Numbered from the stretch's first letter, positions 8,209 to 57,697 are shown. The stretch is DNA of 64,000 nt from Candidatus Latescibacterota bacterium (GCA_965243025.1 CBDETY010000003.1:6688001-6752000), one strand, 5' to 3'. Made by a program: numbers and translations. The notes: a model not told the origin generated them from the sequence alone.

Positions 8209-10308
8209 ATGCCGCGGGCGTTGCTGAAAGGAGTTCTCGCTGCGGCCCTGGTTCTGCCGGGGGGGGAATCCGCGGCGGAAGTCCAGGTCTGGCAATTCGG
8301 GGGAGGAAACGGCAGGCCCTGGGGTGAAATCACCGATCTCAACGTCCTCGTGGACCTCTCCGACCCGGGGGTGCTTCAGCCTCGCGAGCTCGACCCCGGC
8401 GAGAACCTGCTGCCGCATCTGCACCCCTGGCACGACGCCAGAAATCCGGAGGACATCCACTATCAGAACGGCGAGCCCCGCATCTGGCGCGGCGGCGAAC
8501 ACGATCGCTCCAAACTGCTCAAGATGCTGCCCCTGCTGTTCATCGACGGCGATTTCGAGACCGCCTCGGTGAAGCAGGATTTCGGGCCCGGCGGGAACAA
8601 GATGCACGACGAGTACTACACGATCGACGTCGGCGCACCCGTACCGGCCGAGCGTTTCGCCGTGTTTCCCCCGGAGGGAATCGACCACGTCACCGGCGAG
8701 CCGTACGGGAACTTCACCCCGCGGCAGTTCGAGTTGTCCGCGGGCAACGACGCCGAGGCCATCGCCCTGGAAGAGGCCACCGGGGCACCGGTTCCCGGCG
8801 GTTCGAACCTCTACACGACCTGGTGCGAGGATGCGGTCTCGGTCCGTCTCGAGTGCGACTACAAACCGCTCGAAGTGCTCCTGCACACCACCACGCAGAA
8901 TTTCGAAGACCTCATCGACGTCACCTTTCCCGTTCAGTACCTGCGCTTCTTCCGCATACGGCCGTTCCACGACGAGTACTGGAGAGGGCACACCGCCTAC
9001 GGGGTCGACTACCGGCTCGCGTACGCCGAGTTCGCGGTCTACGGACGCGGCTTCGTTCCCGAGGCCAGGTGGGAGTCGCAGGTGGTCGATCTCGGGGCGG
9101 AGTACAACTTCGGCCGCCTTGATTTCGGGACCAGCTCCCTGCGCAAGGGGGAGGACGGAGTTGTCGAGGAGATCGATGCCCGGACCGACGTCGAGATAGA
9201 GCTGAGAACCGGGGACGACGAAACCCCGGTGGCCTTCTTCGGCTTCAACAGCCGCGGGGCGCACGTCGAGGTCCCGGCGGAGGAGTACGAGGACCTCAGG
9301 TTCAACATCCGCCAGCCGCTGGCCAACGAACAGCATATCGGCTGGCGCGGCCCGGTCGGACACGACAACGCCAACTGGGGCTTCTGGTCGGCCCCGGTAC
9401 GGGAGTCGGGAGCAAGGCCGCGGGTCGGCAAGGCGCGCTACTTCCAGGTCCGGGTGAAGCTGCGGACCGATGAGCTGTGGGAGTTTGACCGCCTCGATTC
9501 CCTCGGGGTGGAAATCTCCCCGCTCCTGGCCCGCGAGGTCCTCGGCGAGGTCGCGGTGCTCGAGGACCTGCGCCCGGAGGGCAACCTCGCCAGGGTGCGG
9601 GCGGGGGAGATCGCGGAGTTCGCGTACGACATTGGCGCCGTGTTTCTCGGAGAGGAAGCCGGTTTCGACGCGGTGCGCCTGATGACCCCGGCGTCGGCGG
9701 AGTTTCTCGGCCTGGAGATGGGCGAGCCACCCGTGGAGGTGACTCCCGACGCCGTCTTCGAGGAGACCTCGGGTTTCACCGTGCACCTGCCGCGCCGGGT
9801 CGAAGCGGGGGATCCGCGGCTTCGCATCCGGCTGGCGAGCGCCCTGTACGGCGCTTCGGCAACCTTTGCCGGCGAGGTGTTCGAGCGCGCCGGAGAGGGG
9901 TTGCCCCAGGCGATCGAGCCTGGTGACGTCAGTGACGAGATGGGAACGAACCGGCTGCAGGTGGTGGCGATTGCGTCATCCCTGGGGAACGTCCTCGGGC
10001 GGGTCGAGATCGAGCCGCCGGTTTTCACGCCGCAGGGGGACGGGGTCAACGACCGGGTGCGCATTCTCTACTCGATGCTGCGCCTGCACGAGGGAGCCGG
10101 CGTCGAGGTCGGGGTGTACTCGCTGGGCGGCGAGCGGGTGCGAAGACTGGATTCCAGGACTCGGGGGGCGGGACTTCACGCCGCCGAGTGGGACGGACGC
10201 GACGCCCGCGGTGAGCCGGTGCCTCCGGGGCTCTACCTGGCACGGGTCGAGGTCGAGACAAGCCAGGGGAGTTTCGAGCGCCTGCTGAGGATCGCCGTGG
10301 CCTACTGA
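8209..10308 (+). CDS. Secreted protein with C-terminal FlgD-Ig-like domain, paralog 1
   Basis: Signal peptide ending ESAA. Motifs QPRELDP, EYYTIDVG, YGRGFVPEA, FTPQGDGVND, WDGRD..G..VPPGLY and terminal IAVAY*. Confidence 0.85.
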   Translation: MPRALLKGVLAAALVLPGGESAAEVQVWQFGGGNGRPWGEITDLNVLVDLSDPGVLQPRELDPGENLLPHLHPWHDARNPEDIHYQNGEPRIWRGGEHDRSKLLKMLPLLFIDGDFETASVKQDFGPGGNKMHDEYYTIDVGAPVPAERFAVFPPEGIDHVTGEPYGNFTPRQFELSAGNDAEAIALEEATGAPVPGGSNLYTTWCEDAVSVRLECDYKPLEVLLHTTTQNFEDLIDVTFPVQYLRFFRIRPFHDEYWRGHTAYGVDYRLAYAEFAVYGRGFVPEARWESQVVDLGAEYNFGRLDFGTSSLRKGEDGVVEEIDARTDVEIELRTGDDETPVAFFGFNSRGAHVEVPAEEYEDLRFNIRQPLANEQHIGWRGPVGHDNANWGFWSAPVRESGARPRVGKARYFQVRVKLRTDELWEFDRLDSLGVEISPLLAREVLGEVAVLEDLRPEGNLARVRAGEIAEFAYDIGAVFLGEEAGFDAVRLMTPASAEFLGLEMGEPPVEVTPDAVFEETSGFTVHLPRRVEAGDPRLRIRLASALYGASATFAGEVFERAGEGLPQAIEPGDVSDEMGTNRLQVVAIASSLGNVLGRVEIEPPVFTPQGDGVNDRVRILYSMLRLHEGAGVEVGVYSLGGERVRRLDSRTRGAGLHAAEWDGRDARGEPVPPGLYLARVEVETSQGSFERLLRIAVAY

Positions 10309-10334
10309 CGGCTCGGCGGCATGGTGGCCCGGTG

Positions 10335-12377
10335 ATGAACCGTCTGCTCACAGCGATAACGGTCGGCTGCGCCGCCGGCCTCGGGCAGGTTGCCGCCGAG
10401 GTGGAGGTCTGGCAGCTGGGCGGCGAGGGCGGCCGCCCCTGGAGCGGGTTCACCAACGAGAACGTCCTCGCCGACGACTTCACGAACCCCGCGGTTCTGC
10501 AGCCCCGCGAGCTCCTCCCGGACGTCAACATCCTGCCGCAGCTGGGACCGTGGCACACCGTCAAGCACCCCCCCGATTTCCGCTATCGCGACGGCCAGCC
10601 GCGCATCTGGAGGGGGATCAACTACGTCTTCAAGAGGCTGTTCTTCCCCGGCAAGTACGTCGACGGCGATCCCAACACCGCAGACGTGAGCAACGACCTC
10701 GCTCCCTGGAGGATCGACTGGGAGTTCTACACCATCGACGTCGGCGGGCGCATACCCGCCGAGCGTTTCCGCTTCTATCCCCCCGAGGGCATCGACCACG
10801 TCAGCGACGTGCCGTACCGCCCGAATTTCAATCCGGTCGGGTTCCAGCTGTCGGCGACCAACGACCCGGAGACGCTTTTCCTGGAGACCACCGCAACCAA
10901 CGAGGGGAAACCGGGCGACTACATGCCGCTCGACGCGGTGCTGTTCACGACGAGACAGCACTACGAGCCCACGGGCGTCATCGACATCGACTTTCCGCTG
11001 CAGTTCTTCCGTTTCTTTCGCATTCGCGCCTTTCCCGACGATCCCGAGATCTGCCCCCCGAGCCACGGCGGCAGGTGCATCCGCAGACTGGCCTGGGCGG
11101 AGATGGAGATCTACGGCCGCGGCTTCGTCCCCGAGGCGATGTGGGAATCGCAGGTGGTCGACCTCGGAGGGGATTTCAATTTCGGCCGGGTGATTTACGG
11201 GGTCGGGAAGTGGCGCCGGGACAGGCAGGGAGAGCTGGTCCCCGCCCCGGAAAGCACCGCCAAAGTCGAGGTCGAGCTGCGCACCGGCGGCGACGTCAAC
11301 CCGATAGCCTACTTCGGATTCAACAGCCGCGGGGGACACGTCCAGGTGACCCCGGAGGAGTACGAAGCCCTTAGAGTCGTGCGGCCGGAGCGCGACCCCG
11401 AGCTGATCGGCTGGCGTGGCCCGGTCACCCACGACAGCGAAAACTGGAGCTTCTGGTCCTCCCCGCTGCGGGAGTCCGGGGTGAGGCCGCGGACCGGGAA
11501 GGGCCGTTACTTCCAGCTCAGGGTGCGGCTGCAATCGGACGAGGTCTGGGAGTTCCTGCGGCTGGATTCACTGGCCGTGGAGATCTCGCCCCTGCTCGCC
11601 GACGAGGTGGTCGGTGAGATCGCCGCCCTGGACAACCTGCGTCCGGAGGGAAACCTTACCAGGGTGCAGGCCGGAGTCGCGACCGAGTTTCTCTACGACA
11701 TCGGCGCCGAGTTCTCCGGGGGCAAACCCGGTTTCGACGCCGTGCGGCTCATCACTCCTTCCGAGGCGGACTTTCTCGGCCTGGAGATGGGAGACCCGCT
11801 GGCCGAGGTGGAGCCCGAGGAGGTGATCGCCGAGCCGGGCGGCTTCACCGTGTACCTGCCGCGCAGGGTCAGCGATTCCGGACAGCCCCTCCGCATCCGG
11901 CTGGAGAGCGCGCTGTACGGCGCCTCCGGCACCTTTGCAGGGGAGGTTTTCGACCGCCGGAGCGGGGACCTGCCGCAGACAATCCAGTCAGGCGACGTCA
12001 GCGAGGAGATCGGAACGGACCGGCTGCAGGTAGTGGCGGTTTCCGGTTCGTTCGGCGGGGTCCTGGGACCGGTGGCGGTCGAGCCTCAGACCTTCACCCC
12101 GCAGGGGGACGGAATCAACGACAGGGTGCGGATAGGCTACACCATGCTGCGCGTCCAGGGGGAGGTCGAGGTCGAGGTCGACATTTTCGCCCTGGGAGGT
12201 GAACGTGTCTGGCGCCGGGACTCCCTGACCCAGAGGGCGGGCCGTCACGCCATCGAGTGGGACGGCCGCGACGGGCGGGATGAGCTGGTGGCCCCGGGGC
12301 TCTACCTCACCCGGATCAGGGTTTCGACCAGTGAAGGGGATTTCGAGCGCCAGCGACTGGTCGCCGTCGCCTATTGA
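10335..12377 (+). CDS. Secreted protein with C-terminal FlgD-Ig-like domain, paralog 2
   Basis: Signal peptide ending VAA. Colinear with paralog 1. FTPQGDGIND, WDGRDG and terminal VAVAY*. Confidence 0.85.
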   Translation: MNRLLTAITVGCAAGLGQVAAEVEVWQLGGEGGRPWSGFTNENVLADDFTNPAVLQPRELLPDVNILPQLGPWHTVKHPPDFRYRDGQPRIWRGINYVFKRLFFPGKYVDGDPNTADVSNDLAPWRIDWEFYTIDVGGRIPAERFRFYPPEGIDHVSDVPYRPNFNPVGFQLSATNDPETLFLETTATNEGKPGDYMPLDAVLFTTRQHYEPTGVIDIDFPLQFFRFFRIRAFPDDPEICPPSHGGRCIRRLAWAEMEIYGRGFVPEAMWESQVVDLGGDFNFGRVIYGVGKWRRDRQGELVPAPESTAKVEVELRTGGDVNPIAYFGFNSRGGHVQVTPEEYEALRVVRPERDPELIGWRGPVTHDSENWSFWSSPLRESGVRPRTGKGRYFQLRVRLQSDEVWEFLRLDSLAVEISPLLADEVVGEIAALDNLRPEGNLTRVQAGVATEFLYDIGAEFSGGKPGFDAVRLITPSEADFLGLEMGDPLAEVEPEEVIAEPGGFTVYLPRRVSDSGQPLRIRLESALYGASGTFAGEVFDRRSGDLPQTIQSGDVSEEIGTDRLQVVAVSGSFGGVLGPVAVEPQTFTPQGDGINDRVRIGYTMLRVQGEVEVEVDIFALGGERVWRRDSLTQRAGRHAIEWDGRDGRDELVAPGLYLTRIRVSTSEGDFERQRLVAVAY

Positions 12378-12406: not shown

Positions 12407-14458
12407 ATGAGAAAGATGCGGATGCCAATTGTCCTGTCCGGCGCGTTCGCCGCCCTCCTGCAGGCCGGGGATACCCACGCCAAGGTACAGGCCTGGCAGT
12501 TCGGCGGGGCAGGCGGCGAGGTCTGGAGCGAGTTCGCCGACTCGATCGGAATCGTCCTTGCGGACGACTTCACGAATCCGTCGGCCCTGCAGCCGCGGGA
12601 GCTCGACCCGGAAGTCAACATCGTGCCGCAACTGAGACCCTGGCACGGCTACAAATACCCGCAGGGACACCTGTACCGGGACGGCCAGCCGCGCATATGG
12701 CGGGGGGTCAACAACACCTGGAGGTGGCTGTTCTTTCCCCTGACTTTCGTCGATGGCGATCCCGGTACTGCCAATGTCTTCAATCCCCTGATCAGGACCA
12801 ATCAGGAGTACTACACCCTCGATCTCGGGGGGCGCGTACCCGCCGAGCGCTTCCGCTTCTATCCCCCCGACGGTATCGACCACATAACCGACGTGCCGTA
12901 CCGGCCGAATTACGTCCCCGTCGGCTTCGAGCTGTCGGCGACCAGCGATGCGGAATGGATCGCCGAGGAGGGCATCGCCGAGACCGGTTACAACCGCCTG
13001 GAACACCTGCTGTTCACCACCAGGCAGCACTACGAGCCCTCCGGCGTCGTCGACATCGAGTTCCCGCTGCAGTACCAGAGGTTCTTCCGCATCAGGGCGT
13101 TTCCGGAATCGGTCGATATCTGCATCCACAGCGGCATCCACGAGCACTGGAGAGGGGAGTGCATCCGCCGGCTCGCCTGGGCGGAGATGGAGGTCTACGG
13201 CCGCGGGTTCGTTCCGGAAGCCATCTGGGAATCCCGGGTGGTCGATCTCGAGGGGGAGTTCAGCTTCGGCCGGGTGCAGCTGTGGACGAGCAGGTGGCGG
13301 CGCAACGAGGAGGGGCTGCTCGAGCCGGCTCCGGGGAGTCCTGCCCGCGCCGAGGTGGAGCTGCGGACCGGAAACGACGAGGATCCGACCGCCTGGTTCG
13401 GGTACAACAGCCGCGGCGGGCACGTCCAGGTGACGGCGGAGGAGTTCGAGGGGCTGCGGGTCAACCGGCCGGAGATCGATCCCAAGGAGATCGGCTGGCG
13501 CGGACCGGTGGCCCACGACCACGAGAACTGGAGCTTCTGGTCGTCGCCGATCGCCGGTTCGGGATCGCGCCCGCGGGTCGGAACCGGCCGCTATTTCCAG
13601 ACCCGGGTCAGGCTGTACACCGACAGTGTGTGGGAGTTCGCGCGTCTCGACTCGCTGGCGATCGAGTATTCCCCGCTGCTTGCCGACCGCATAATCGCCG
13701 AGATCGCCGGCATCGACAACCTGCGACCCGACGGCAACCTCACCAAGGTCCTTGCCGGAGAGAGAACGGAGTTCGTCTACGACCTGGTCGCCGAATTTTC
13801 CGGGGAGAAACCCGGCTTCGACGCGGTGCGCCTGTTCACCCCCTCCGAGGCGGAGTTCCTCTCTCTGCAGATGGGGGATCCCCTGGCGGAGACAGCGCCG
13901 GACGAGGTGGTCGAGGAGGGAGCGGGATTCACCCTGTACCTGCCGAGAAGGGTGGCGGCGGGAGAGCCGCCGATACGAATCGAGCTGGCCACGGCGCTCT
14001 ACGGCGCCTCGGGAACGTTCGGCGGCGAGGTGTTCGAGCGCGGCGGCGAGGGGCTGCCGCAGACCATCGAGGCCGGGGACGTCAGCGACGCCGTCGGCAC
14101 CAACCGGATGCAGGTGGTCGCCTTCACCTCCTCGCTCGGGGGGGTCGTCGGAGCGGTGGAGGTCGATCCCCCGGTTTTCACGCCCCAGGGGGACGGCGTC
14201 AACGACCGCGTGCGGATCGGCTACTCGATGATGCGTGTGCAGGGTGAGGTCGAGGTCGAAGTCGGGTTGTTCTCGTTGAGCGGGGAGCGGGTCTGGCACC
14301 GGCGGTCGGGCACCGGGGCGGGGCGGCATTCGGTGTCATGGGAAGGCCTGGACGACCAGGGGCGCCCGGTGCCCCCGGGGCTGTACCTCGCCCGCGTGAA
14401 AGTCGCCACAAGCGAAGGGGACTTCGAGCGCCTGCAGCGCGTCGCCGTGGTCTATTAG
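12407..14458 (+). CDS. Secreted protein with C-terminal FlgD-Ig-like domain, paralog 3
   Basis: AAGGAG RBS with ATG at 12407. Signal peptide ending THA. Colinear with paralogs 1 and 2. Terminal VAVVY*. Confidence 0.85.
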   Translation: MRKMRMPIVLSGAFAALLQAGDTHAKVQAWQFGGAGGEVWSEFADSIGIVLADDFTNPSALQPRELDPEVNIVPQLRPWHGYKYPQGHLYRDGQPRIWRGVNNTWRWLFFPLTFVDGDPGTANVFNPLIRTNQEYYTLDLGGRVPAERFRFYPPDGIDHITDVPYRPNYVPVGFELSATSDAEWIAEEGIAETGYNRLEHLLFTTRQHYEPSGVVDIEFPLQYQRFFRIRAFPESVDICIHSGIHEHWRGECIRRLAWAEMEVYGRGFVPEAIWESRVVDLEGEFSFGRVQLWTSRWRRNEEGLLEPAPGSPARAEVELRTGNDEDPTAWFGYNSRGGHVQVTAEEFEGLRVNRPEIDPKEIGWRGPVAHDHENWSFWSSPIAGSGSRPRVGTGRYFQTRVRLYTDSVWEFARLDSLAIEYSPLLADRIIAEIAGIDNLRPDGNLTKVLAGERTEFVYDLVAEFSGEKPGFDAVRLFTPSEAEFLSLQMGDPLAETAPDEVVEEGAGFTLYLPRRVAAGEPPIRIELATALYGASGTFGGEVFERGGEGLPQTIEAGDVSDAVGTNRMQVVAFTSSLGGVVGAVEVDPPVFTPQGDGVNDRVRIGYSMMRVQGEVEVEVGLFSLSGERVWHRRSGTGAGRHSVSWEGLDDQGRPVPPGLYLARVKVATSEGDFERLQRVAVVY

Positions 14459-26931: not shown

Positions 26932-26944
26932 GTCCCCCCCGCGA

Positions 26945-46788: not shown

Positions 46789-46827
46789 CCGGGACGGATG
46801 GTCCGAATTCGAGAAAGCAGGCACCCG

Positions 46828-49209
46828 ATGAGAGCCTCCATGGCGATCTGCAGCATCGCTGTGTCGACGTTCGCCCCGCTGCAGTCAGGGAACGCCGACG
46901 AGTACGAGATTTCGCGCCGCGCCCAATGGCTGGAATGGACGGCCAATGACATCCCTGTCCTGGATACGGAAACACTCGACCTGCGGCCCGACGGCTCGGT
47001 CAGCCTGAGGAAATTCGAGCAGAACTTCAACGCCGCTCTCGACGCCCCGCTGTTTTTCCACGAGGAAAAGCAGGGAGGAATTCGGGAGGTGGGATCGAAC
47101 CAGCGGGATGCCCCCAACATCATCGACGGGGACCCGGAGACCTACTGGCAACCGGATGCCGACGCCCCGCTCGAAGACTGGTTCATCGAAATCGACCTTG
47201 GACGAGTCGTACCGGTGACCAGGGTGCGGATCCTCTTCCCCGACGGAGAGGGGGCGAAACCCTTTGAGGAGTTCAGGGTGTTCGAATCGGACGGTCTCCG
47301 GGTGGCCTCCGGAGACGTTTTCACCTTCGATCTCATCGGCGGCACTACCCGGCAGAATTTCGAAACCGAGGTCGAGTACAGGATCAGGGAGAGGGGCGGC
47401 GGAGCTACTGCGGTTCTCGGCAGGGGAGGAGTCGACGAGAGCAATGAACACCTCAGCGAGCCTTTCGTGATGATCCAGTACATCGGACTCTGGGCGGACG
47501 CCAGGAACGCCGATGCCGCGATCGCCGAGTTCGAAGTCTACACGTTCGGTGAGAATGTGTCGCTCGGGACCCTGCAGCGAGGAGGCAGCATCGTCGAGGG
47601 CACGGGGCTCGGACCGAGAGTAGCCGACGGCGACTTCAACACCACCTGGGGCGCTCTGGTCTCTTTCGAGCACGAAGGCGGAGGCGGCGAGTCCGGTTTC
47701 ACGGAATCCGAGGCGCTCGTCTGGGATCTCGGCGCCCTGTTCTGGGTGCACCAGATCCTGTGGCTGCCCCCGGTCGCACACCTCGACAACTTTCGCTTTC
47801 TCAGTTCTGACGGCAGCCTCAACCTTGCAGGGGAGTTCGAGTTCGAAATCATGTTCGATTTCGGCCACCTCACCGCCTTCGGGGGGTTTTCCCGGATAAC
47901 GGGAACCACGACCGGGGGAGCCGGGGGCGAGCCGAATATCCGTTACCTGTTTCTGCCCCCGAAGCGGATACGCTACCTGTCGGGCATTTTCCAGGGGGGC
48001 ATAGGAGGGCAGCTGAGAACGGGGGACATCAAGGAGGTCGTCGTCGTTCCTTCAGGTCACGTGGCGCAAGTGGAGATGAAGTCTCCGTTCATCGACCTCG
48101 GACGTCTCGGGGGGGACAATCGGATCAAGGTCATCGACGCCCTCACCTGGGAGACGGATCCCCTTCCTCCGGGGGCATTCGTTCAGGCCCGGACGCGAAC
48201 CGGAAACACCCTGGCCGAGGAGGTCACCTACTTCGACCGGGCGGGTGCGCAGCTGTCTGGAAAGGCCGAATACGACGATCTCAACAAGCGCATGAGAGGC
48301 CGCACGGACACCGCGACCGTGATTGGAGATGACTGGAGCCCGTGGAGCAAGATCTACCAGGACGCGGGTCAGGAGTTCCTCTCTCCCAGTCCCAGGCGGT
48401 TTGCCCAGATCGAGCTTCTTCTCGGTTCCGACAGGCCGGAAACAGCCCCTGCGCTGCAGTCGGTTTCCCTGGAATACACCAACGCCATCCTCGCCGGGGT
48501 GGATGGAGAGGTGCATCCCCGAACAGCGTCCGCGGGCGTGGTTGAGGAATTCATTCTCGGCATCCAACCGGAGTTCAGATCGGGGGATTCCGGTTTCAAC
48601 CTGATCAAGCTTCTGACTCCCTCCGCCGTGGACGATCTGACCATCTCGGTAGGCGGCAGCGTGGTCGAGGATGCCCGCGTCGAGATCGTCCCGGATTCCC
48701 TGCTGATAGAGTTGTCCCAACCCGTCACAAGGCAAGCCGTCGAGCTGAATTTCCGCCTTGCCCTTCTGGAAAACCCCACCTACTTCAATACCCAGATTGG
48801 AAACACGGAGCAGCCCGGCCTCTGGCAGCCCGTCGACCCCCGCGGGCGTTACGCCACCACGGTTTTTCTCCCGTCGTTGCCTGAAACAGCCGAAGCCGTG
48901 GGAAGTCTCTCCATAAAACCGCAACTTCTCACTCCCAACGGCGACGATTTCGGAGAGCAGACCGCCATACGGTTCAACGCCTTGAAAGCAGATGCCACCC
49001 CTGAGGTGAAGGTGTTCGACCTGCAGGGAAGGCTGATGGCGGAGCTGACCGGGGAGAGGGGATCGGACCAGGTCCTCACCCACGCCTGGACCTACACCTG
49101 GTCCGGTAGAAATCAGTCCGGGGCCCTCGTACCCCCCGGCATATACGTATGCTGGGTCAAGCTCGAAGGGGATGAAGCAGTGGCGCGGACCATCAGTGTC
49201 GCCTATTGA
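46828..49209 (+). CDS. Secreted protein with discoidin/F5-8-like module(s) and C-terminal FlgD-Ig-like domain, paralog 6
   Basis: Signal peptide. NIIDGDPETYW..WFIEIDLGR (discoidin-like), RTRTG, WSPWS, SPSPRRF, LTPNGD, WSGRNQSG..VPPGIY and terminal ISVAY*. Confidence 0.82.
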   Translation: MRASMAICSIAVSTFAPLQSGNADEYEISRRAQWLEWTANDIPVLDTETLDLRPDGSVSLRKFEQNFNAALDAPLFFHEEKQGGIREVGSNQRDAPNIIDGDPETYWQPDADAPLEDWFIEIDLGRVVPVTRVRILFPDGEGAKPFEEFRVFESDGLRVASGDVFTFDLIGGTTRQNFETEVEYRIRERGGGATAVLGRGGVDESNEHLSEPFVMIQYIGLWADARNADAAIAEFEVYTFGENVSLGTLQRGGSIVEGTGLGPRVADGDFNTTWGALVSFEHEGGGGESGFTESEALVWDLGALFWVHQILWLPPVAHLDNFRFLSSDGSLNLAGEFEFEIMFDFGHLTAFGGFSRITGTTTGGAGGEPNIRYLFLPPKRIRYLSGIFQGGIGGQLRTGDIKEVVVVPSGHVAQVEMKSPFIDLGRLGGDNRIKVIDALTWETDPLPPGAFVQARTRTGNTLAEEVTYFDRAGAQLSGKAEYDDLNKRMRGRTDTATVIGDDWSPWSKIYQDAGQEFLSPSPRRFAQIELLLGSDRPETAPALQSVSLEYTNAILAGVDGEVHPRTASAGVVEEFILGIQPEFRSGDSGFNLIKLLTPSAVDDLTISVGGSVVEDARVEIVPDSLLIELSQPVTRQAVELNFRLALLENPTYFNTQIGNTEQPGLWQPVDPRGRYATTVFLPSLPETAEAVGSLSIKPQLLTPNGDDFGEQTAIRFNALKADATPEVKVFDLQGRLMAELTGERGSDQVLTHAWTYTWSGRNQSGALVPPGIYVCWVKLEGDEAVARTISVAY

Positions 49210-49344: not shown

Positions 49345-51249
49345 ATGACTTTCCGAGCCCTGATAACGGGACTGGTGCTGTCCCTCGCCGTCGGAATCGC
49401 CGTCTACTTCGAGATGTACCTCAAGGGTTCGAACGCCGGCGGGGTATTCCTCACCAGTCCGGCAGCGTTGTTCTTCTTTGTGATTCTCGTCGGTATCGTG
49501 AATGTCGTTCTGGGAGCTGTGCACAGGCCCTGGGCGTTCCGGCGCGGCGAGCTGATAGCCATCTTCATAATGATGACGGTGGCCAACTCCGCCCACAACC
49601 CGGTCCATTACTGGCTGGGGGCGTTGACGGGGGTCTTTTACTACGCCACCCCCGAGAACGATTGGGCCGAACGGCTGCATCCGCACATCCCGGAATGGAT
49701 CGCTCCACGCGACTGGACCGCGATCAGGGATTTTTACGAGGGAACCGGAGGACATGGCGGCATTCCCTGGGAGGTGTGGGCGGGGCCGATTCTCTACTGG
49801 CTGCCCTTGATCATGGGATTCCATGTGGCGGCTCTTTGCCTGATGGTCATGGTCAGGCGCCAGTGGATGGACCAGGAACGGCTTGTTTATCCGATAGTCC
49901 AGGTTCCCCTGGCCATGGTCCGGGACGACGAACGCGGCTCCCTCGTCAAGCCCTTCTTTCGCAGTTGGGCGATGTGGCTCGGAATGGCGGTTCCAATCGC
50001 CATAGGGGCGGTGCGGGGTCTCCACCACTACCTCGAGTACGTGCCGACAATCGAACTGGCCACCCACCTCTCCCTGATGGATGGACTGAGCGTGCCGGTG
50101 GGACTGAGCTTCGCCACGCTCGGGTTCTTTTTCCTCGTAATGCGCGAAGTATCCTTCTCGCTGTGGGCCCTCTATCTGCTGAACCTGATCCAGAGGGCCG
50201 CCTACCTGCGGCTGGGAGTAGGCACGTCGACGGAAACCGCCATCAGCCCCTTCAGCGGCTGGAGCACTCCCGACCTCGTTCACCAGGGCGTCGGGGGCCT
50301 GATCGTGCTCGTTCTGGGCGGCCTGTGGCTTGGCCGGACCCATATCGGGGACGTGCTGCGAAAGGCTTTCACCGGGGCCCGCGACATCGACGACAGCCGG
50401 GAGATCCTCTCCTATCGCGGTGCGGTGATCGGGCTTTTCGGCAGTTTCGCGGTGATGACCGTCTGGCTGTGGCTGTCCGGTATCCCGTTTCTCGGAGTGC
50501 TGGTGTTCCTGTTTTTTGCCTTTGTGATTTTCATGGGGCTTACCCGCCTGATAGCGGAGGGGGGATTTGCCGTAATCTACAATCCGCTGGTGGCTCCCGA
50601 TGCGGCGATTTCGGCCATGGGATCCTCCTTTTTCGGAGCTTCCGGCATGATGGGGCTGATGTTCACCCGGGTGTGGGCGAACGACATCATGAACTTCATC
50701 ATGCCCCACTTCGCCCATGGCCTCAAACTCAGCGAGCAGATCGGCCGGCGCCGGCGCTTGCTGTTCTGGGGGATGATTCTGGCGAGCTTGGCGGGTCTGA
50801 GCGGGTCCTTGTGGATGGTGTTGACCCTGACCTACAACCACGGGGGCGTCAACCTGAGGGACTTCAACTACATCTGGATGCCGAGGACGATTCCCGAATA
50901 TGCGGCGGCGCGCATCGCGGAGTGGTCGGGCCCCGCCTGGTGGGGTTGGTTTCACACCGCTGCAGGAGCGGTCTTCATGTCACTGCTGATGATGGCCCGG
51001 AGGTTCTGGGGATGGTGGCCCCTGCATCCTATCGGCTTTCCGATCAGCGCCTGCGTGGGGTGGGCGGCCATCAATGCCTTCCTGGCATGGATGTTCAAGT
51101 CGATTGCCCTGAACTATGGGGGGCCGCCGCTCTACAGGGCGATTCGCCCGTTCTTCCTCGGCCTGATCCTGGGTCAGATAACCATCTGCGGTATCTGGTG
51201 GATCATCGACACCTTTACAGGACAGCAGGGCAACTACGTCCTGTGGTAA
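49345..51249 (+). CDS. Multi-pass membrane protein, DUF6785/DUF6784-like putative transporter, copy C
   Basis: Full-length paralog of 26945..28852 and 28866..30776 (MTFRAL.., RRQWMDQERLVYP, WWPLHPIG). Confidence 0.8.
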   Translation: MTFRALITGLVLSLAVGIAVYFEMYLKGSNAGGVFLTSPAALFFFVILVGIVNVVLGAVHRPWAFRRGELIAIFIMMTVANSAHNPVHYWLGALTGVFYYATPENDWAERLHPHIPEWIAPRDWTAIRDFYEGTGGHGGIPWEVWAGPILYWLPLIMGFHVAALCLMVMVRRQWMDQERLVYPIVQVPLAMVRDDERGSLVKPFFRSWAMWLGMAVPIAIGAVRGLHHYLEYVPTIELATHLSLMDGLSVPVGLSFATLGFFFLVMREVSFSLWALYLLNLIQRAAYLRLGVGTSTETAISPFSGWSTPDLVHQGVGGLIVLVLGGLWLGRTHIGDVLRKAFTGARDIDDSREILSYRGAVIGLFGSFAVMTVWLWLSGIPFLGVLVFLFFAFVIFMGLTRLIAEGGFAVIYNPLVAPDAAISAMGSSFFGASGMMGLMFTRVWANDIMNFIMPHFAHGLKLSEQIGRRRRLLFWGMILASLAGLSGSLWMVLTLTYNHGGVNLRDFNYIWMPRTIPEYAAARIAEWSGPAWWGWFHTAAGAVFMSLLMMARRFWGWWPLHPIGFPISACVGWAAINAFLAWMFKSIALNYGGPPLYRAIRPFFLGLILGQITICGIWWIIDTFTGQQGNYVLW

Positions 51250-51261
51250 GTACGGGGGGCG

Positions 51262-51298
51262 AAAAAAAAACGGGGAGAGCGTTTCTACGCTCTCCCCG
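51262..51298 (-). terminator. Rho-independent terminator for the 52269->51328 gene
   Basis: Perfect 12-bp stem CGGGGAGAGCGT-ttct-ACGCTCTCCCCG with an A9 run on its left, which is U9 on the minus strand. Confidence 0.88.
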
Positions 51299-51327
51299 CC
51301 AAACTGCCTCCTGAAATTCCGGAGCCT

Positions 51328-52269
51328 TTACTTGCTCTCCAGGTTTTCCTGCATGGAGTGCTTGATCCGGGCCCAGGTGACTGTCTCGACTGCCGTATCG
51401 TCTTCCTCGGCCGGGATCGGGAAGTAATCGCTGTGCGAGTCCCCGTTCCGGAAGATGGCGTCGACGCATCCGGCCTCGCGACAACCGGTCAGATGACGCT
51501 GCCAGTTCGTGTCGCCATCCTGAAACTGCACGCCGAAGTGGATGACTTTGTCCACCTCGATGATATGCCTGATGGACTCGGCGGCACTGGTGCTCCAGTC
51601 GTCATACAGCTGGAAAGCGAGCTCGTGGGTTCTGGTAACGTTGGTGCTTCCGTGCTGGGCGTCCGGCGGCGAAAGGGTCCAGGTGCCGTCGACGGCGGGA
51701 GGCTCGGCGAGCCACCACAAATCCTGGTTGTCCTGCCAGTCCGGGTTGTTGATCCAATGATAACGCACCTCTTCGCCGGCGACGTTGGTCGGCAGCACGC
51801 GCCACTGGTAGAAGTATCCGTTCCGCTCGACTTCGTGGTCGCCGAGGTTCTCGTCATCCCTGAAGAACCCGCCGGTATGATCCGGGTCGAAACCGATCAC
51901 CAGTTCGTCGTCCTTCCACCAACCGCCCGGTTCCTCGGTGTCGACCTTCAGCGTGTCGTCCTGTATCCGGGTGAAGAACCAGAAGCGGTTGTCATCCCCC
52001 CCGCTCCAGGCTGTGAAGTAGACGATGTTGAGCGAGTTCGGATCGATTTCGCCTACGTATGCGGCAATGCTCTTCATCTCCGAATTGTCGACGGCAAAGC
52101 TTTCGTCGTACCACCCCCAGTCGGCCTCGTCGCCATCGAGCACCATGTTCGCTACCTGGGACGGCGGTATTTGCGGGAAGAACTTCGTGACGCCGTTATG
52201 GGCCATGGCCGCCCCGCTGGCGGCAAGAATCAAGGCCAGCGTCAAAGCCAATGACTTCGATGAACTCAT
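51328..52269 (-). CDS. Secreted acidic protein, possible CBM9/DOMON-like fold, with C-terminal TAVETVTWARIK tail
   Basis: AAAGGAG RBS. Signal peptide ending AMA. LDGDEADW and ..QDD..D.L.I..DPDHTGG resemble CBM9/DOMON-like sugar-binding domains. Confidence 0.75.
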   Translation of the reverse strand: MSSSKSLALTLALILAASGAAMAHNGVTKFFPQIPPSQVANMVLDGDEADWGWYDESFAVDNSEMKSIAAYVGEIDPNSLNIVYFTAWSGGDDNRFWFFTRIQDDTLKVDTEEPGGWWKDDELVIGFDPDHTGGFFRDDENLGDHEVERNGYFYQWRVLPTNVAGEEVRYHWINNPDWQDNQDLWWLAEPPAVDGTWTLSPPDAQHGSTNVTRTHELAFQLYDDWSTSAAESIRHIIEVDKVIHFGVQFQDGDTNWQRHLTGCREAGCVDAIFRNGDSHSDYFPIPAEEDDTAVETVTWARIKHSMQENLESK

Positions 52270-52374
52270 GAAAGACTCCTTTCGAGGCTGTGGGAGTTGA
52301 ACGGAAATTGCAGGCTTGTGAAAATCTCAGGAAGTTCGTATTGTGGGCTGCGAATTCGCCTTAATAATTGGAAC

Positions 52375-52403
52375 TATATAGGTAAATCCCCTGGTCAAGT
52401 CAA
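52375..52403 (-). promoter_or_regulatory. Candidate sigma70 promoter for 52269->51328
   Basis: Minus strand TTGACT-N17-TATATA (TATAGT at N19) in an AT-rich divergent intergenic region. Confidence 0.4.
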
Positions 52404-52522
52404 CCTTTTTCTGCCAGGGTTCAGTCCGCCTCGCAGTGGGATTTCGTCGGGCCAAACTGCTTGCGCTCATCGGGAACTTTCCGAGTTTGGCTGGGAATAT
52501 TTCAGCCCTTAGGGAGGGATAA

Positions 52523-55177
52523 ATGCGGCGTCTCTTATTTTCTCCTAAATCGATACAGCTCCTCCTGCTCCCGATCATCCTCGTTACGGATCTTCCGGTT
52601 TTCGCCCAGAGAACCGGGTACCGGCCCGTTGAAGAGCCGGGGATCTACGGCGCCCGCATCCATCCGGGCGCCTTGGCCCCGAATCGCCGCAAATGGCTCC
52701 TGCCTCAGAATCTCTACTACGAATATCAATGGAAGGGCTGGGAATACAGCAACTACGCAAGGGACCACTACCAGCGCTATGTCGACATCCTTCTCGAAGG
52801 GACCCGTCACTACGATCCATTCGGAAACTACATCGGCCGCGGATGGGAGATCTACGACTGGACCGAGACGAGTCCGCAGAGGCTGGGAAGCGGCATTTTC
52901 AAGAGTCCCAGGTGGAGGGGCTTCTTCAACAGCGTCGTGGTGTCGTCGGCAAGCAAGGGCCAGTTCTTTACCGCCCTCACGGCAGGCGATGCGATCCGCA
53001 CAAGCCTGACCCCCCTGACCTTCTCGAAACCGGCGTTCAACGGTATCCAGTGGGACCTGTTGAGCGACAAGTACGCCGTGACGGCGCTGGCCTCGCGGCT
53101 CAATTCCCCCGGCTTCACCGCCTTGAGCGAAGCACAGGGCCCGGGCCTGGTCGAGAACTCCACCCGCCTCATGGGTCTGAGGGGGGTCACGCAGGTGGGA
53201 GACTTCGCCAAGGTGGGGGCGACGTGGGTCAGCGCCGCCAACGCGAGCAGCGAGTTGAGCATCGGCGACAATTCTCTCAAAGGAGTGCTCACCGGACCCC
53301 AGAATACGGGTAACGTCGAGACCATCACCATCCGGATCTCCGACGATTCCCCCGAATCTGCGGAATCGGGAGCCCTGCTTTACTTCGACCAGGTCCTGAT
53401 CGACGGCGAGGCGCACCCGGAAATCGTGCCCCTGATCAGCGGTGGAGTCGGCAGGGAGGGAGTGCTCGAGGCGCGCGGCTCGGACCATATCGAGCTGATC
53501 TACGATATACGCAACGCCTTCCGCCCCACGGATGACGTTCCGACCTTCCGCGACGCCCGCAAGCTGGAGTTCGAGCTCGTGGTCGCCAATGACTACCGCA
53601 TCGAAGTCACATCGAACCTGCAGACCGACCGCCGCGGAGCTCAGGTGTTTCTCCTGGTAGACCAGGCGCGGAACAACATAGTCGACGGGGCAAACCAGCG
53701 GTTCATTCGCTTCGCCTACGGTCTTCCTACTGCCAGCGAGGTGCTCGGCATCGATCTGGAGCTGATTGACTGGGGAGGACTCGAGCTGAGGTCGGAATAC
53801 GTCGTGAACCGCAAATACCGGCGTTTCCCCAACCAGAATTACCGCAAGTTGGGGGCCCGGAAGGAGACTGCCGAGGCCTACTATGTAACTGCTTCCTACC
53901 GCCAGCATCCCTGGTTCGCATTCGGAGAGGCGTACAGCATGGATCCGGAATACAGTACGTCGGCCTTCATCGGCGACTCCCGGGGCGCTTTCGATTATTC
54001 CGATGAAACCCGGCACCTGTTCGAGTTTGTGGACGACAACGACGACCAGGACCGATTCCCCGACTGGATGCGGTTCGGGCAGGGAGGGCAGCAGGGCGGT
54101 ACGACGGCGGGTGCGGCCGGTTTCGACCTCAGAGTGTTTCCCGGGCTCGATGAGAACAACGACTTCGTCTCCGATTTCAACCAGAACCAGAACGGCAAAC
54201 CGGATTACGACGAACCCTTCCTTCGCTATGCCGTGGATCCTCCGGAGTTCCTGTTCGGCATGGACATGAACAACAACACCATTATCGACCGTTTCGAGAA
54301 CGATCTCGAGCCGGATTATCCGTACGACCGCGACCGACAGGGCCGGAACATATACGGGGGATTGGCACTGACCGAGGATGTCCACCTGACGGTGGGCAGC
54401 CTCAGCGAAAACCAGCTGAGCAGCGCCCGCGAGAGCAGAGCTACGTACGCCTTGCTCACGGCCGGGTGGGAGCTTCCGGGTCTCAATATTTCCCTGTTCG
54501 AACACGCCAAGTGGGTCAAGGACGACATCCCGGACGACCGCATCCGGTGGGTCGACCCCCTGGGGCACCAGGATTTCCTCGACCCGCTCGAAAACCAGGA
54601 TACGTTCGTCAACCAGGTTTACCTCGATGCCAGATTCTCACGCATCCGCGATCTCAACATCGAAGGCAAGCTGAAATACGAGACCTTCGGCCAGGGAGGG
54701 GATCTGGCCGAGGACGAAAGCATTCGGGACCGTTCCTTCTTCGGCTTGATCAACAAGGCGGACTACAGCTACAAGCTCCATCGCGACCTGACCCTGTGGC
54801 CCAAATGGAAAAGCACCTTCCGCCGTTTGACCCCTACCTCGACCGAGGATCTGAAGCTTCGAGACCTGGAGGAGACCCTGTTTCTGGTAAGCCGGTATTC
54901 GATTGTCGAGGGGCGTACCTGGATGGATTGGGGCGTGGAGCTGAGCTGGTTCAACAACCTCAGGGAGAGGCCGGATGAACCTCCGCCCGGATTCGTCGAC
55001 GACTTTCGCAGCCGCGTCTGGTCGATTCTTTTCGGGAATGTCTCGGAGTACCTGGGATATCAACTGACCATGAACCTCGGTGTCCAGCTCGAGAGAACGC
55101 AGTTCGAGGCCACCGACGAGGTCCGGAAGGAATCGATCGCATTCATGAGAATCTTCGCCAGCACTGGACAGATGTGA
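52523..55177 (+). CDS. Exported hypothetical protein, putative outer-membrane beta-barrel with Asp/Asn-rich Ca-binding-like loops
   Basis: GGAGG RBS and signal peptide ending VFA. Many alternating-hydrophobic, aromatic-rich strands, especially in the C-terminal half. DENNDFVSD, NQNGKPDYDE and DMNNNTIID loops. Confidence 0.7.
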   Translation: MRRLLFSPKSIQLLLLPIILVTDLPVFAQRTGYRPVEEPGIYGARIHPGALAPNRRKWLLPQNLYYEYQWKGWEYSNYARDHYQRYVDILLEGTRHYDPFGNYIGRGWEIYDWTETSPQRLGSGIFKSPRWRGFFNSVVVSSASKGQFFTALTAGDAIRTSLTPLTFSKPAFNGIQWDLLSDKYAVTALASRLNSPGFTALSEAQGPGLVENSTRLMGLRGVTQVGDFAKVGATWVSAANASSELSIGDNSLKGVLTGPQNTGNVETITIRISDDSPESAESGALLYFDQVLIDGEAHPEIVPLISGGVGREGVLEARGSDHIELIYDIRNAFRPTDDVPTFRDARKLEFELVVANDYRIEVTSNLQTDRRGAQVFLLVDQARNNIVDGANQRFIRFAYGLPTASEVLGIDLELIDWGGLELRSEYVVNRKYRRFPNQNYRKLGARKETAEAYYVTASYRQHPWFAFGEAYSMDPEYSTSAFIGDSRGAFDYSDETRHLFEFVDDNDDQDRFPDWMRFGQGGQQGGTTAGAAGFDLRVFPGLDENNDFVSDFNQNQNGKPDYDEPFLRYAVDPPEFLFGMDMNNNTIIDRFENDLEPDYPYDRDRQGRNIYGGLALTEDVHLTVGSLSENQLSSARESRATYALLTAGWELPGLNISLFEHAKWVKDDIPDDRIRWVDPLGHQDFLDPLENQDTFVNQVYLDARFSRIRDLNIEGKLKYETFGQGGDLAEDESIRDRSFFGLINKADYSYKLHRDLTLWPKWKSTFRRLTPTSTEDLKLRDLEETLFLVSRYSIVEGRTWMDWGVELSWFNNLRERPDEPPPGFVDDFRSRVWSILFGNVSEYLGYQLTMNLGVQLERTQFEATDEVRKESIAFMRIFASTGQM

Positions 55178-55194
55178 TCGGGAGGGCATTCGCA

Positions 55195-55992
55195 ATGCGA
55201 ACCGAGATGACTCACCGGGGAAGTGGTGCAGGGCGGGGAAGGTCGCTGGTGGCATCCTCCGTTTTCCTGGGGATCCTTGCAGCCGGATGCGGACTGAAAC
55301 TGGGGTACCGCCACTTTGCAGGCCCCGTGGTTCCGGCTGCGGAGCACGAGGAACAGTTCACGGTCGGGGACGACCGCAGCATTACTTTCGTCCGCGGCCG
55401 CCTCGAGGTGACGATGCTGCCCCTTACCACGGAGATGATAAACCGCCAGCTGTCGTCCCATTCGGAGTCCCGCGCCGGCTTTTCCCGACCCAACCCCTAC
55501 GTCACGCCCACCAATCCCTACAGTTACGGCGACTGGACCCCCCTGGGAGAGGGTACGTCCCCCGACCGCTTCACCCTGTTCGTGCTGAAGGTGAAGAATT
55601 ACGCCTACCCCAAGGTCCGCATAGATCCTTCCGGCATCGAGATCGTCGCTCCGAACGGGCGTCGTTATCCGTCGCTCACCCTCTCCGCACTGGTCGAGTA
55701 CTACTGGCCCTATGCGGTCGCCTACTCCGGGAACAACCACAGGCAGCTGCGCGAGCGTACGGACGTGCTGCGGCGCACTCTGTACCGGGACGACATGGTC
55801 TTCAGCGGTCAGGAAAAGCAGGGTTTCGTCGTGTTCGAGCCGCTTCACCGCGATGTGGAAGATTTCACGCTCCATATCAACGGGATGCAGCTGCGTTTCG
55901 ACTACCGCGGCGACCCGATTGAAACCGTGGACATCGCCTATCGCTTCGACCGCGAGGTGCACTACGCCAAAGAGCCTCCCGCGGAGGGGTAG
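55195..55992 (+). CDS. Hypothetical lipoprotein
   Basis: GGAGGG RBS and lipobox ILAAGC. The beta-rich body (FTLFVLKVKN..GFVVF) suggests a beta-sandwich. Confidence 0.75.
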   Translation: MRTEMTHRGSGAGRGRSLVASSVFLGILAAGCGLKLGYRHFAGPVVPAAEHEEQFTVGDDRSITFVRGRLEVTMLPLTTEMINRQLSSHSESRAGFSRPNPYVTPTNPYSYGDWTPLGEGTSPDRFTLFVLKVKNYAYPKVRIDPSGIEIVAPNGRRYPSLTLSALVEYYWPYAVAYSGNNHRQLRERTDVLRRTLYRDDMVFSGQEKQGFVVFEPLHRDVEDFTLHINGMQLRFDYRGDPIETVDIAYRFDREVHYAKEPPAEG

Positions 55993-55996
55993 ACCG

Positions 55997-57697
55997 GTGC
56001 GGGGCCCCGTACTGATTCCAGCTTTTTTTTCGCTGCTCTTCATTTTCGGCTGCGCCCGGGAACAGAGGGAAGAGGCTGCCGATGCCGTTCCCTCTGCCCG
56101 GGATGACAACGTCCTGGCGAGAGTCGGGGACGCGGGAATTTCCGTGGGTGATCTGTACAGGTTCACCGCGGAAATGCCGGCGGTGCTGCGTTCGGAACAG
56201 GAGGGAACCGAAGCGGTTCGCGACTACCTGCAGTCGATGATCGACAAGGAGTTGATGCTTCGGGAGGGGCGCAGTCTCAACCTTGCCGGGGACCCCTCGT
56301 TCCAGGCCGCATGGGACCGGGAGTTGCATGGCAAACTGGCTCAGGAGTACCTCACCAGGAACTTTTCTCCCAGTTCAGAAGACGAGCAGGTCGAGACTTG
56401 GAGAAAGCGGTTTGCCGACAGCAAATGGAGCCGCCTGCTTCGGCTCGCTCATATTCGCGTCGGCAGTCCCGGGGAAGCCCGGGAAATCGTTCGCCAGCTC
56501 GACGAGGGGCGTTCCTTCCCAGAAGCGGCCAGGGAGCATTCCACCAGCCAGGGCACGGCTGCTGACGGCGGTGTCATCGACGCCTGGATCGGGCGCGGAA
56601 ACCTGGGCGACCTGGGACTGCCCCTGGAAGTTGCAGAAGAGGTTTTCGAACTGCCGGCGGGGGAGGTGAGCCGCCCGTTCAGAATCGGCGGCGGCTACGA
56701 GATTCTCACGGTGGTCGAAGAGCGCGATGCCCCGGACTGGTACCTCCCGGTTTTCGTGCGGGTCGAGATCGAAAAGAGATTCCTCTCCTGGAGGGATGAT
56801 CTTGTTGCCGAGCTGGCCCGGAGCCACGGGGTTCGCATGGAGCCGGAGGCCGTCTCGGCGTTGCTGCAAGGGGCGCCGGCCGGCGGCAAGCCCCTCGAGC
56901 TGCCCGCCGAAGAGCAGGGACTGGTACTGTGCCGTTTCGATGGCAGGGAGTACAGCCTCGCGGACTTCGCCCGCGCCTACGGGAGCTTTTCCACCTTTCG
57001 CGCCATCGAATTCGACGACGAGGGAATTGAGGGGTTCGCGGTCAATCACCTGTTGCGGGACAGCCTGCTGGCAAGGGCCGCGCGGGACGCCGGTATCGAC
57101 AGCGATCCCGAAGTCCTGGCCTGGCTGGACAGCAAACGGGACAACATGATGATCGAAGCGCTGCGAAAACGGGAGGTAGACGACCGCATAACGGCCAGTG
57201 AAGAATCGATACGGCGATACTACGAGGAAAACAAGCACCGCTTCATGAGGCCGGCTGAAATCGCCGTGGCGGAGATACTGGTGAAGACCCGTGAGGAGGC
57301 TGAGCAGCTTGCCCGGAGGGTTCGACGCGGGGAAGACATAAGGAAGCTGGCCAGCCAGTACAGCGTCCGGGAAGACGTAGTGGTGGAAAACGGCGTCTTC
57401 CACATGCATCCCTACGAACGCGTGGTTTTCGGAGAATTGCTCGCAGAGGCGGAGGAGGCGGAGGTCGGCGAGTTGCGGGGACCGATCGAAGTCGACGAAG
57501 GGTTCTCAATGTTCGAGGTGGTAGAGAAGATCCCACCCAGACCGGACTCCTTCGAGCGGGCCCGCGGCAGGGCGGAGTTCTGGGTCAGGGACCAGCAGGA
57601 GCGGCGGTATTTCGGCGAGCTGCTTGCAAGGCTCAGAGAGAAGTACGCTACCGAAGTCGTCGTTCACGAAGACCGCCTTTTCAAAGTGCAAATCTGA
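55997..57697 (+). CDS. Parvulin (PpiC)-type peptidyl-prolyl isomerase lipoprotein with two rotamase domains (SurA/PrsA-like)
   Basis: GGAGG RBS with GTG and lipobox FIFGC. LAHIRV...FPEAAREHS...GEVSRPF and YYEENKHRF..AEILVKTREEAE..LASQYS. Confidence 0.85.
   Translation: MRGPVLIPAFFSLLFIFGCAREQREEAADAVPSARDDNVLARVGDAGISVGDLYRFTAEMPAVLRSEQEGTEAVRDYLQSMIDKELMLREGRSLNLAGDPSFQAAWDRELHGKLAQEYLTRNFSPSSEDEQVETWRKRFADSKWSRLLRLAHIRVGSPGEAREIVRQLDEGRSFPEAAREHSTSQGTAADGGVIDAWIGRGNLGDLGLPLEVAEEVFELPAGEVSRPFRIGGGYEILTVVEERDAPDWYLPVFVRVEIEKRFLSWRDDLVAELARSHGVRMEPEAVSALLQGAPAGGKPLELPAEEQGLVLCRFDGREYSLADFARAYGSFSTFRAIEFDDEGIEGFAVNHLLRDSLLARAARDAGIDSDPEVLAWLDSKRDNMMIEALRKREVDDRITASEESIRRYYEENKHRFMRPAEIAVAEILVKTREEAEQLARRVRRGEDIRKLASQYSVREDVVVENGVFHMHPYERVVFGELLAEAEEAEVGELRGPIEVDEGFSMFEVVEKIPPRPDSFERARGRAEFWVRDQQERRYFGELLARLREKYATEVVVHEDRLFKVQI

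Follow-up and report, generated by a model that had tools for sequence, protein, structure and literature searches.

In sediments, soils, sponges and the ocean, organic matter is degraded by abundant, uncultured bacteria of Latescibacterota-like and Gemmatimonadota-labelled lineages, and to our knowledge the way in which they take up their substrates is largely unknown. The polysaccharide utilization loci (PULs) of Bacteroidota are a described system against which a candidate uptake locus of such bacteria can be set. We analysed a 64-kb window (the whole stretch of DNA studied, 64,000 nucleotides, CBDETY010000003.1:6688001-6752000 of GCA_965243025.1, from a Candidatus Latescibacterota bacterium) which encodes six secreted paralogues (S1-S6), three polytopic membrane proteins (M1-M3), and an exported protein (B884) followed by a lipoprotein (LP) and a lipoprotein with two parvulin-type peptidyl-prolyl isomerase (PPIase) domains (PPI). 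Like a PUL, the locus combines multi-copy exported binder-like proteins, a predicted outer-membrane barrel, a predicted inner-membrane importer and sugar-processing genes, with several sets per genome. Unlike a PUL, the window carries no SusC, SusD, TonB/ExbBD or recognisable carbohydrate-active enzyme, the predicted importer has an OPT fold instead of a major facilitator superfamily fold, and a parvulin chaperone and a tetratricopeptide-repeat (TPR) lipoprotein are present. Genes were called from open reading frames (ORFs) and third-position GC, and none of the 43 ORFs scanned against Pfam matched SusC, SusD, TonB, Plug or core families of the type IX secretion system (T9SS), in agreement with an initial annotation of this DNA, which had recognised no SusC/SusD, TonB or T9SS core genes. 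Nor did a SusD-like lipoprotein emerge beside the barrel, LP having no match in Pfam (E≤10), in NCBIfam beyond noise or among PDB sequence profiles. The set of genes observed here, their paralogy and predicted folds, and the linkage that recurs between them most likely reflect a lineage-specific envelope module, carried by metagenome-assembled genomes (MAGs) labelled Latescibacterota, Handelsmanbacteria or Gemmatimonadota and organized around a bacterial and archaeal OPT/YSL-fold branch. No published description of this gene set was found in those parts of the searched literature that were accessible to us; searches on Latescibacterota polysaccharide utilization or outer membrane, on FlgD Ig-like domains with type IX secretion, and on type IX secretion in Latescibacter found nothing, the accessible portions of the broader results were community surveys only, and those on Handelsmanbacteria yielded nothing on this system.

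All three M proteins matched DUF6785 over the full length (E 3.9e-118, 9.3e-118 and 4.6e-115 for M1, M2 and M3, respectively) and DUF6784 (E 1.5e-20, 4.3e-21 and 7.8e-23), in every case above the curated Pfam cut-off. A structure model of M1, obtained with AlphaFold2 from 64 homologues, was confident (pLDDT 90.4, pTM 0.91) and, when compared with the PDB by Foldseek, matched only barley Yellow Stripe 1 (YS1), a member of the OPT/YSL family (7wst_A, E 3.2e-7; 7wsr_A, E 9.8e-7). The match extended over the whole length (680-695 columns) with a TM-score of 0.61-0.65 at a sequence identity of 13-14%, and the next one had an E value of 0.067 and a TM-score of ~0.1, all the non-YS1 matches falling at E > 0.06 and TM < 0.2. 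Unlike described OPT/YSL proteins, the M family does not match the OPT Pfam model PF03169 (none of 14 members at E≤10) and is found in a sugar-redox context, not one of peptides or metal chelates. A PDB sequence-profile search returned no matches, a protein-atlas search returned same-family clusters only, and PF03169 was precomputed on just one of the 120 homologues listed and on 11% of one archaeal DUF6785 cluster; these PF03169 sequence leads agree weakly with the OPT fold. Because the M1 model matches YS1 alone, and with these weak leads, we predict that DUF6785 and DUF6784 together make up an OPT/YSL-fold transporter. The question raised by the initial annotation, whether the product of the gene at 26945 had a transporter fold such as that of OPT proteins, is thus answered in the affirmative by the model, and no publication on DUF6785 or DUF6784, hence no characterised unrelated function, was found. 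In a maximum-likelihood tree of 83 M proteins, M1, M2 and M3 formed a recent private expansion with 99% support.

B884, which the initial annotation had left as either a barrel or a soluble protein, is predicted to be a large outer-membrane beta-barrel. Its N-terminus is signal-like, it has no cysteines, and it had no Pfam match at E≤10 and nothing above noise in NCBIfam. The family nevertheless comprises at least 707 representatives at E≤1e-3 in a 50%-clustered library, the named members all being called 'hypothetical'. An AlphaFold2 model from 66 sequences (pLDDT 82.6, pTM 0.80) placed approximately 22-26 long strands, antiparallel to one another, in residues 138-880. In this model a beta domain is inserted at ~267-381, the acidic region at ~500-604 has no regular structure, and the N-terminal segment (30-90) is conserved yet unmodelled. 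Many columns of the acidic region are nearly invariant Asp or Asn (D505 N506 D507 D508 ... D604), a run which, we presume, recalls calcium-binding thrombospondin-type-3-like repeats; no Pfam match backs the likeness. Foldseek produced 70 matches at E≤0.001, and all 50 matches listed were outer-membrane barrels, with MtrB first (E 1e-9), SlpA of Deinococcus second (8ae1, E 4.5e-8), and FimD and LptD behind them. The TM-scores were low (0.14-0.30 overall, 0.26-0.27 for SlpA, 0.19-0.21 for usher structures), so that the strand pattern and the fold matches fix the predicted class of B884, not a close relative. The nearest lead comes from the SlpA-type giant barrels, since SlpA_C (PF21620) gave sub-threshold matches in 10 of 49 distant B884 relatives (best E 2e-7). 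With the SlpA/OmpM proteins of Deinococcus-Thermus B884 shares the very large barrel; it differs from them in lacking an SlpA_C match (E≤10), an SLH domain or a coiled-coil stalk, and in having the conserved acidic loops and the inserted beta domain. On the model, B884 would represent a new family of barrels, linked to SlpA remotely at most. Other identities were considered and set aside: a single PDB sequence-profile match (E 0.045) was judged to be due to chance, an Mtr-like conduit was rejected because haem motifs are absent from the module (no CxxCH in S1-S6, X313, B884, LP or PPI, X313 being a secreted protein encoded between M3 and B884), and the LptD and usher matches (TM 0.14-0.21) went no further than a generic barrel likeness.

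The six S proteins can be aligned over their whole length, and the paralogy is far beyond chance. All six begin with a hydrophobic signal-like segment and have a C-terminal FlgD_ig or CHU_C match in Pfam, which bears out the common scaffold and C-terminal domain described in the initial annotation; FlgD_ig exceeded the 27-bit cut-off in three (S1, S4 and S5 only) and CHU_C remained under its cut-off in all six. They may to that extent recall T9SS cargo with C-terminal sorting domains, and the C-terminal ~80-100 residues also have a likeness to the PorU tail (E 4e-5 to 5e-3); the sub-threshold CHU_C scores and the lack of any T9SS core gene in the 64-kb window set them apart from it. The S family profile matched the Ig-like domains of FlgD and C5a peptidase at the C-terminus and five different Clostridium CBM32 modules at positions ~100-250 (E 0.005-0.07). 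Six of the 42 family members gave a discoidin match (F5_F8_type_C) in the N-domain, the best at E 2.7e-10, and in S6 the match fell below threshold (E 7e-6, 26.6 bits vs a cut-off of 28.2). The N-domain may accordingly be described as weakly CBM32/discoidin-like. It is also the most variable part of S1-S4, with 52% identity and ~24 gapped columns vs 61-64% and no more than 2 elsewhere. The protein-atlas neighbours of S are unnamed clusters, from Gemmatimonadota and Latescibacterota, that contain discoidin, FlgD_ig and CHU_C.

Two of the S genes lie directly upstream of M genes on the same strand: 13 nt separate the stop of S4 (26931) from the ATG of M1 (26945), and 135 nt the stop of S6 (49209) from the ATG of M3 (49345). 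Both gaps are as the initial annotation gave them, as are the two runs in which the three paralogous M genes follow secreted genes. The tight cassette that it described, made of B884, LP and PPI, is equally real, with spacing of at most 17 nt. PPI has two stretches each of Rotamase_2 (6.6e-21) and Rotamase (2.2e-17) above the Pfam cut-off and a weak SurA-N-like region (SurA_N_3, 18.8 bits vs a 27.2 cut-off), and its NCBIfam equivalog scores were far below cut-off. Its two parvulin domains, weak SurA-N-like region and predicted periplasm-facing lipoprotein character may recall SurA, PrsA and PpiD; unlike these, it is encoded in a specific cassette beside one barrel gene and not as a housekeeping function. 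X313 had no Pfam match at E≤10 and no NCBIfam match beyond noise. The TPR-repeat protein encoded upstream of S1 has homologues adjoining B884, PPI or S in five other loci (L001, L004, L005, L037 and L039) and is a recurring companion of the module. LP-like proteins were also seen directly upstream of DUF6785 in two loci (L029:2-757 and L061:8430-9830), with an extra C-terminal domain of ~150 residues unlike the LP of the window.

To place the window among other genomes, loci were fetched with an alignment of 14 M proteins; the best 80 of at least 431 matches gave 77 loci from 44 species-level genomes, in which each component was counted with family profiles against six-frame ORFs. Most loci were labelled Latescibacterota, Handelsmanbacteria or Gemmatimonadota, and a few Planctomycetota, Armatimonadota or Desantisbacteria. 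The S scaffold was present in 17 loci (14 genomes), with a FlgD-type tail only in 6 further loci, and B884 in 12 loci (10 genomes). Both were found together in 10 loci (8 genomes), a co-occurrence with a Fisher p of 1e-6 over the 77 loci in a calculation not corrected for phylogeny; the families therefore recur together in other genomes, a point that the initial annotation had put forward for checking. The two B884 loci without S both end at a contig edge beside B884. PPI was detected in 7 loci, 6 of them containing B884. Gene orders were also conserved: S-B884-B884-PPI-M in two loci (L057 and L068), S-S-B884-PPI..M in L033, M-S-S-S-B884-X313 in L032, and, in L021 and L022, PPI-LP-S-X313 on one strand with B884-M-S-S-X313 on the other. 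Same-strand gaps of 27-195 nt led into M from B884 (4 loci), PPI (2), S (3) or LP (1). The B884-linked M genes fell into at least five supported clades of the tree of 83 M proteins, and the B884-linkage label changed 7 times on it, compared with a mean of 13.1 after shuffling, none of 500 shuffles being as low. One Handelsmanbacteria MAG encodes M, B884 and S homologues at FJY95_00760, _00820 and _00835, which we infer from these tags, and from contigs of equal length, to be on a shared contig. Neither S nor B884 was found in 58 of the 77 loci, so that M is far more widespread than the S/B884 module.

For a survey of the surroundings of the M family, 980 genes called in the 77 loci were clustered, and the median member of each cluster was run against Pfam. 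The commonest neighbours were GFO/IDH/MocA oxidoreductases (18 loci), two clusters of PhyH dioxygenases (15 and 10), MR/MLE enolase-superfamily proteins (14) and aldo-keto reductases (13), and further ones were ATP-binding cassette (ABC) ATPases (11), sulfatases (9) and short-chain dehydrogenases/reductases (9); UxuA-, BNR- and GH20b-like proteins occurred in few loci. To judge by these neighbours, M usually lies within islands of a sugar or sugar-acid catabolic type, where the sulfatase, BNR and GH20b-like clusters, present in a minority of related loci, are the only carbohydrate-active candidates. A giant (~1485 aa) FtsX/MacB-type permease accompanied by an ABC ATPase was observed in 9 loci (e.g. 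L066:4738-9192), directly downstream of M in 5, and HlyD-like genes were seen near M in other loci.

Table 1 Features of the 64-kb window. Coordinates are counted from its first nucleotide; identities are between proteins.
Feature	Coordinates	Strand	Description
TPR-repeat protein	5478..7226, start uncertain	+	Upstream of S1; lipobox-like LGATAC motif; Pfam TPR families
PhyH-like gene	~7250-8098	+	Directly upstream of S1
S1	8209..10308	+	Signal peptide, discoidin/CBM32-like N-domain (weak likeness), two beta-rich middle regions, FlgD-Ig-like C-terminal domain
S2	10335..12377	+	Secreted paralogue, 58% identity to S1
S3	12407..14458	+	Secreted paralogue, 57% identity to S1
OppB-OppC-OppD-OppF-like ABC genes, then MalF-like and MalG-like permeases	19100..24760	+	Pfam, NCBIfam and ORF reading
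MalF-like permease	22986-23897	+	
MalG-like permease	23894-24760	+	Between MalF and S4
S4	24838..26931	+	Secreted paralogue, 56% identity to S1; upstream of M1
M1	26945..28852	+	DUF6785+DUF6784 polytopic membrane protein, predicted OPT/YSL fold
M2	28866..30776	+	DUF6785+DUF6784, 71% identity to M1
FG-GAP/ASPIC(UnbV) protein	38619-42287	+	Pfam
FG-GAP/ASPIC(UnbV) protein	42383-44713	-	Pfam
S5	44797..46788, alternative start 44866	+	Divergent paralogue, 30% identity to S1
S6	46828..49209	+	Most divergent paralogue, 24% identity to S1; large insertions
M3	49345..51249	+	DUF6785+DUF6784, 69% identity to M1; downstream of S6
Hairpin	51269..51300	-	GC-rich, 14 bp, then T run; between convergent M3 and X313
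X313	51328..52269	-	Secreted 313-aa protein between M3 and B884; no family
B884	52523..55177	+	Exported 884-aa protein, predicted large outer-membrane beta-barrel
LP	55195..55992 (ATG), or GTG 55174 overlapping B884 stop	+	Lipoprotein, lipobox LAAGC; no family
PPI	55997..57697, GTG start	+	Lipoprotein, lipobox IFGC; two parvulin PPIase domains

The remaining genes of the locus (Table 1) belong to ABC uptake and sugar-redox or dioxygenase families, as the initial annotation had stated and Pfam agrees: Opp-type and CUT1-type ABC systems, four GFO/IDH/MocA oxidoreductases, an aldo-keto reductase, a xylose-isomerase-like TIM protein and PhyH dioxygenases. The MalG-like permease, the PhyH-like gene upstream of S1, the TPR protein and X313 had not been listed there. 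With the MalG-like permease in place, OppBCDF-MalF-MalG-S4-M1-M2 forms a single unbroken run on the + strand from 19100 to 30776. The hairpin is a strong terminator that separates the S5-S6-M3 unit from X313. The FG-GAP/ASPIC family was found near DUF6785 genes in 12 of the 77 loci. No Rfam families or tRNAs were found in the window, and a promoter scan of it did not rise above shuffled sequence. GC content is high throughout the window (0.59-0.71 per 2 kb), and from 44000 to 58000, the stretch from S5 through S6, M3, X313, B884 and LP to PPI, GC falls from ~0.66-0.70 to 0.59-0.63, with third-position GC lower too; this sub-locus could differ from the rest in origin or in expression level. A gene at 4120-5517 (- strand) encodes a Cro/C1-type helix-turn-helix domain fused to a PhyH dioxygenase domain according to Pfam and may specify a ligand-sensing regulator of the island. 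Amid the sugar-redox genes, the 574-aa product of 34843-36567 (- strand) is a membrane protein whose HTTM domain (E 6e-12) is vitamin K-dependent gamma-carboxylase-like; the text of a 2025 paper on human GGCX names Handelsmanbacteria once. Downstream of the cassette and of a PhyH gene, 58761-61508 (+ strand) encodes a 915-aa protein with a spermidine-synthase-like domain and C-terminal TPR.

From these observations we tentatively propose, with a confidence that stays a little under even, that the locus specifies a TonB-independent, PUL-like route of capture and uptake that works without SusC/SusD. The exported multi-copy S proteins, each with a variable CBM32/discoidin-like N-domain, a conserved beta-rich stalk and a FlgD-Ig-like end, would bind glycans or glycoconjugates at or near the surface. 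B884 would pass the captured solute or oligomer through the outer membrane without TonB. The ligand would next be imported through the inner membrane by the predicted OPT-fold M proteins, probably at the expense of the proton gradient, which also drives known OPT members. Its processing in the cytoplasm would fall to the enzymes of the GFO/IDH/MocA, aldo-keto reductase, xylose-isomerase-like TIM, PhyH and amidohydrolase types. PPI, probably together with the TPR lipoprotein and LP, would fold or insert B884 or S. The localisation of S, the direction of transport, the class of substrate and every protein-protein contact enter this scheme as suppositions. Of the PUL-like analogy drawn by the initial annotation, the part that concerns folds and recurrence has gained ground, and surface binding by S, a nutrient conduit and import keep the standing of a proposal.

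Several observations weigh against such an uptake route. The substrates known for OPT transporters comprise peptides and metal chelates, not glycans, and an Opp-type ABC system lies in the same operon as M. No glycoside hydrolase, polysaccharide lyase or carbohydrate esterase family was matched in the window by Pfam, the CBM32 likeness of S is weak, and the likeness of X313 to a carbohydrate-binding module is weaker still (CBM9 1i82 as its only PDB profile match, at a non-significant E of 0.33). The window holds six S genes, three M genes and one B884 gene, and 7 of the 17 S loci have no B884 within 10 kb, from which it follows that an S/M set does not in every case require the barrel as its partner. 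One would look for a dedicated PPIase and a TPR lipoprotein in an assembly or secretion machine sooner than in an uptake locus, and the structural evidence consists throughout of predictions. As regards the counts, all 77 loci were fetched via M, which gives the link between M and the module no background control, and four pairs are near-duplicates (L021/L022, L037/L039, L004/L005 and L057/L068; branch lengths ~0.06 or less), so that independent observations are fewer than the raw counts. These near-identical loci come from MAGs labelled Gemmatimonadota in one case and Latescibacterota in the other, and the public labels of these MAGs are consequently inconsistent. Finally, LP was found in only 4 of the 77 loci. 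This rarity, like that of X313, whose homologues recur beside B884 or S in 5 loci, would fit a looser arrangement in which B884 is a general porin of the SlpA kind, or a structural protein of the outer membrane, and has its own chaperone, the S proteins are ordinary secreted adhesins or binders and the DUF6785 proteins are independent importers, all of them clustering only since catabolic islands gather envelope genes. The SlpA_C matches among the distant B884 relatives and the second rank of SlpA among the fold matches agree with it, as do the 58 DUF6785 loci with neither S nor B884 and the number of S genes adjoining M (8 of 30), by a rough estimate little above what gene order would lead one to expect. 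We consider this arrangement somewhat unlikely, given that orders such as S-B884-(B884)-PPI-M recur in at least five separate transporter clades, that the gaps are short and on the same strand, and that S and B884 are strongly associated within the locus set.

A different division of labour, which we rate as unlikely, would give B884 the role of a translocon or anchor, assisted by the TPR lipoprotein, LP and the parvulin, through which the S proteins are exported and displayed by way of their FlgD-Ig-like C-terminal domain. Such a machine would find its analogues in ushers, Slam or the T9SS, and the predicted OPT-fold M proteins would be no more than neighbours that consume whatever S releases. 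Both TPR lipoproteins and SurA-like chaperones typically serve as assembly factors, and one barrel for six S genes would suit a shared machine. S is present in 10 of the 12 B884 loci, the other two being cut by a contig end, B884 is present in all but one of the seven PPI loci, and the C-terminal domain of S resembles FlgD-Ig, CHU_C and the PorU tail, yet the window is devoid of a T9SS core gene. The best fold matches of B884 include the FimD usher, but TM-scores to usher structures are low (0.19-0.21). Unrelated M proteins would moreover be hard to reconcile with loci in which B884 (four) or PPI (two) abuts M on the same strand, and in several genomes B884 is encoded more than once, every copy being near an M gene (L005 and L057; L022 and L032). 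Transport might also run outwards, with the OPT-fold M proteins exporting a polymer precursor, a peptide or a chelator, B884 releasing it and S binding the matrix of a biofilm or capsule. The ABC ATPase and giant permease directly after M in five loci, the HlyD-like genes nearby and the conserved acidic, calcium-site-like loops of B884, which could bind an anionic polymer, point in that direction, but those OPT/YSL members that have been characterised import their substrates, M is surrounded by catabolic oxidoreductases and ABC importers with solute-binding proteins, and the window contains no glycosyltransferase or polymerase genes by Pfam; we regard export as very unlikely. Display and uptake could, lastly, be functions of one outer-membrane machine, in which B884 with the TPR lipoprotein, LP and PPI would both display S independently of the T9SS and gate the ligand, independently of TonB, to the OPT-fold importers, a combination that seems to us distinctly unlikely, if less so than export.

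Both the assignment of predicted folds and the conservation of linkage are solid; the mechanism is a proposal. Even on a cautious reading, the OPT-fold and giant-barrel assignments improve the annotation of thousands of metagenomic proteins. If B884 and its companions both displayed S and gated the ligand, glycan foraging would have a third architecture in addition to the SusCD and the Gram-positive ABC systems. If the locus is the capture and uptake route that we propose, it would provide the first functional handle on DUF6785 and DUF6784, to which the OPT/YSL fold is now assigned by prediction, as well as a handle on a family of barrels that has no annotation and comprises at least 707 sequence clusters, and on a large CBM32-like secreted family, and it would mean that PUL-like foraging is possible without TonB-dependent transporters.

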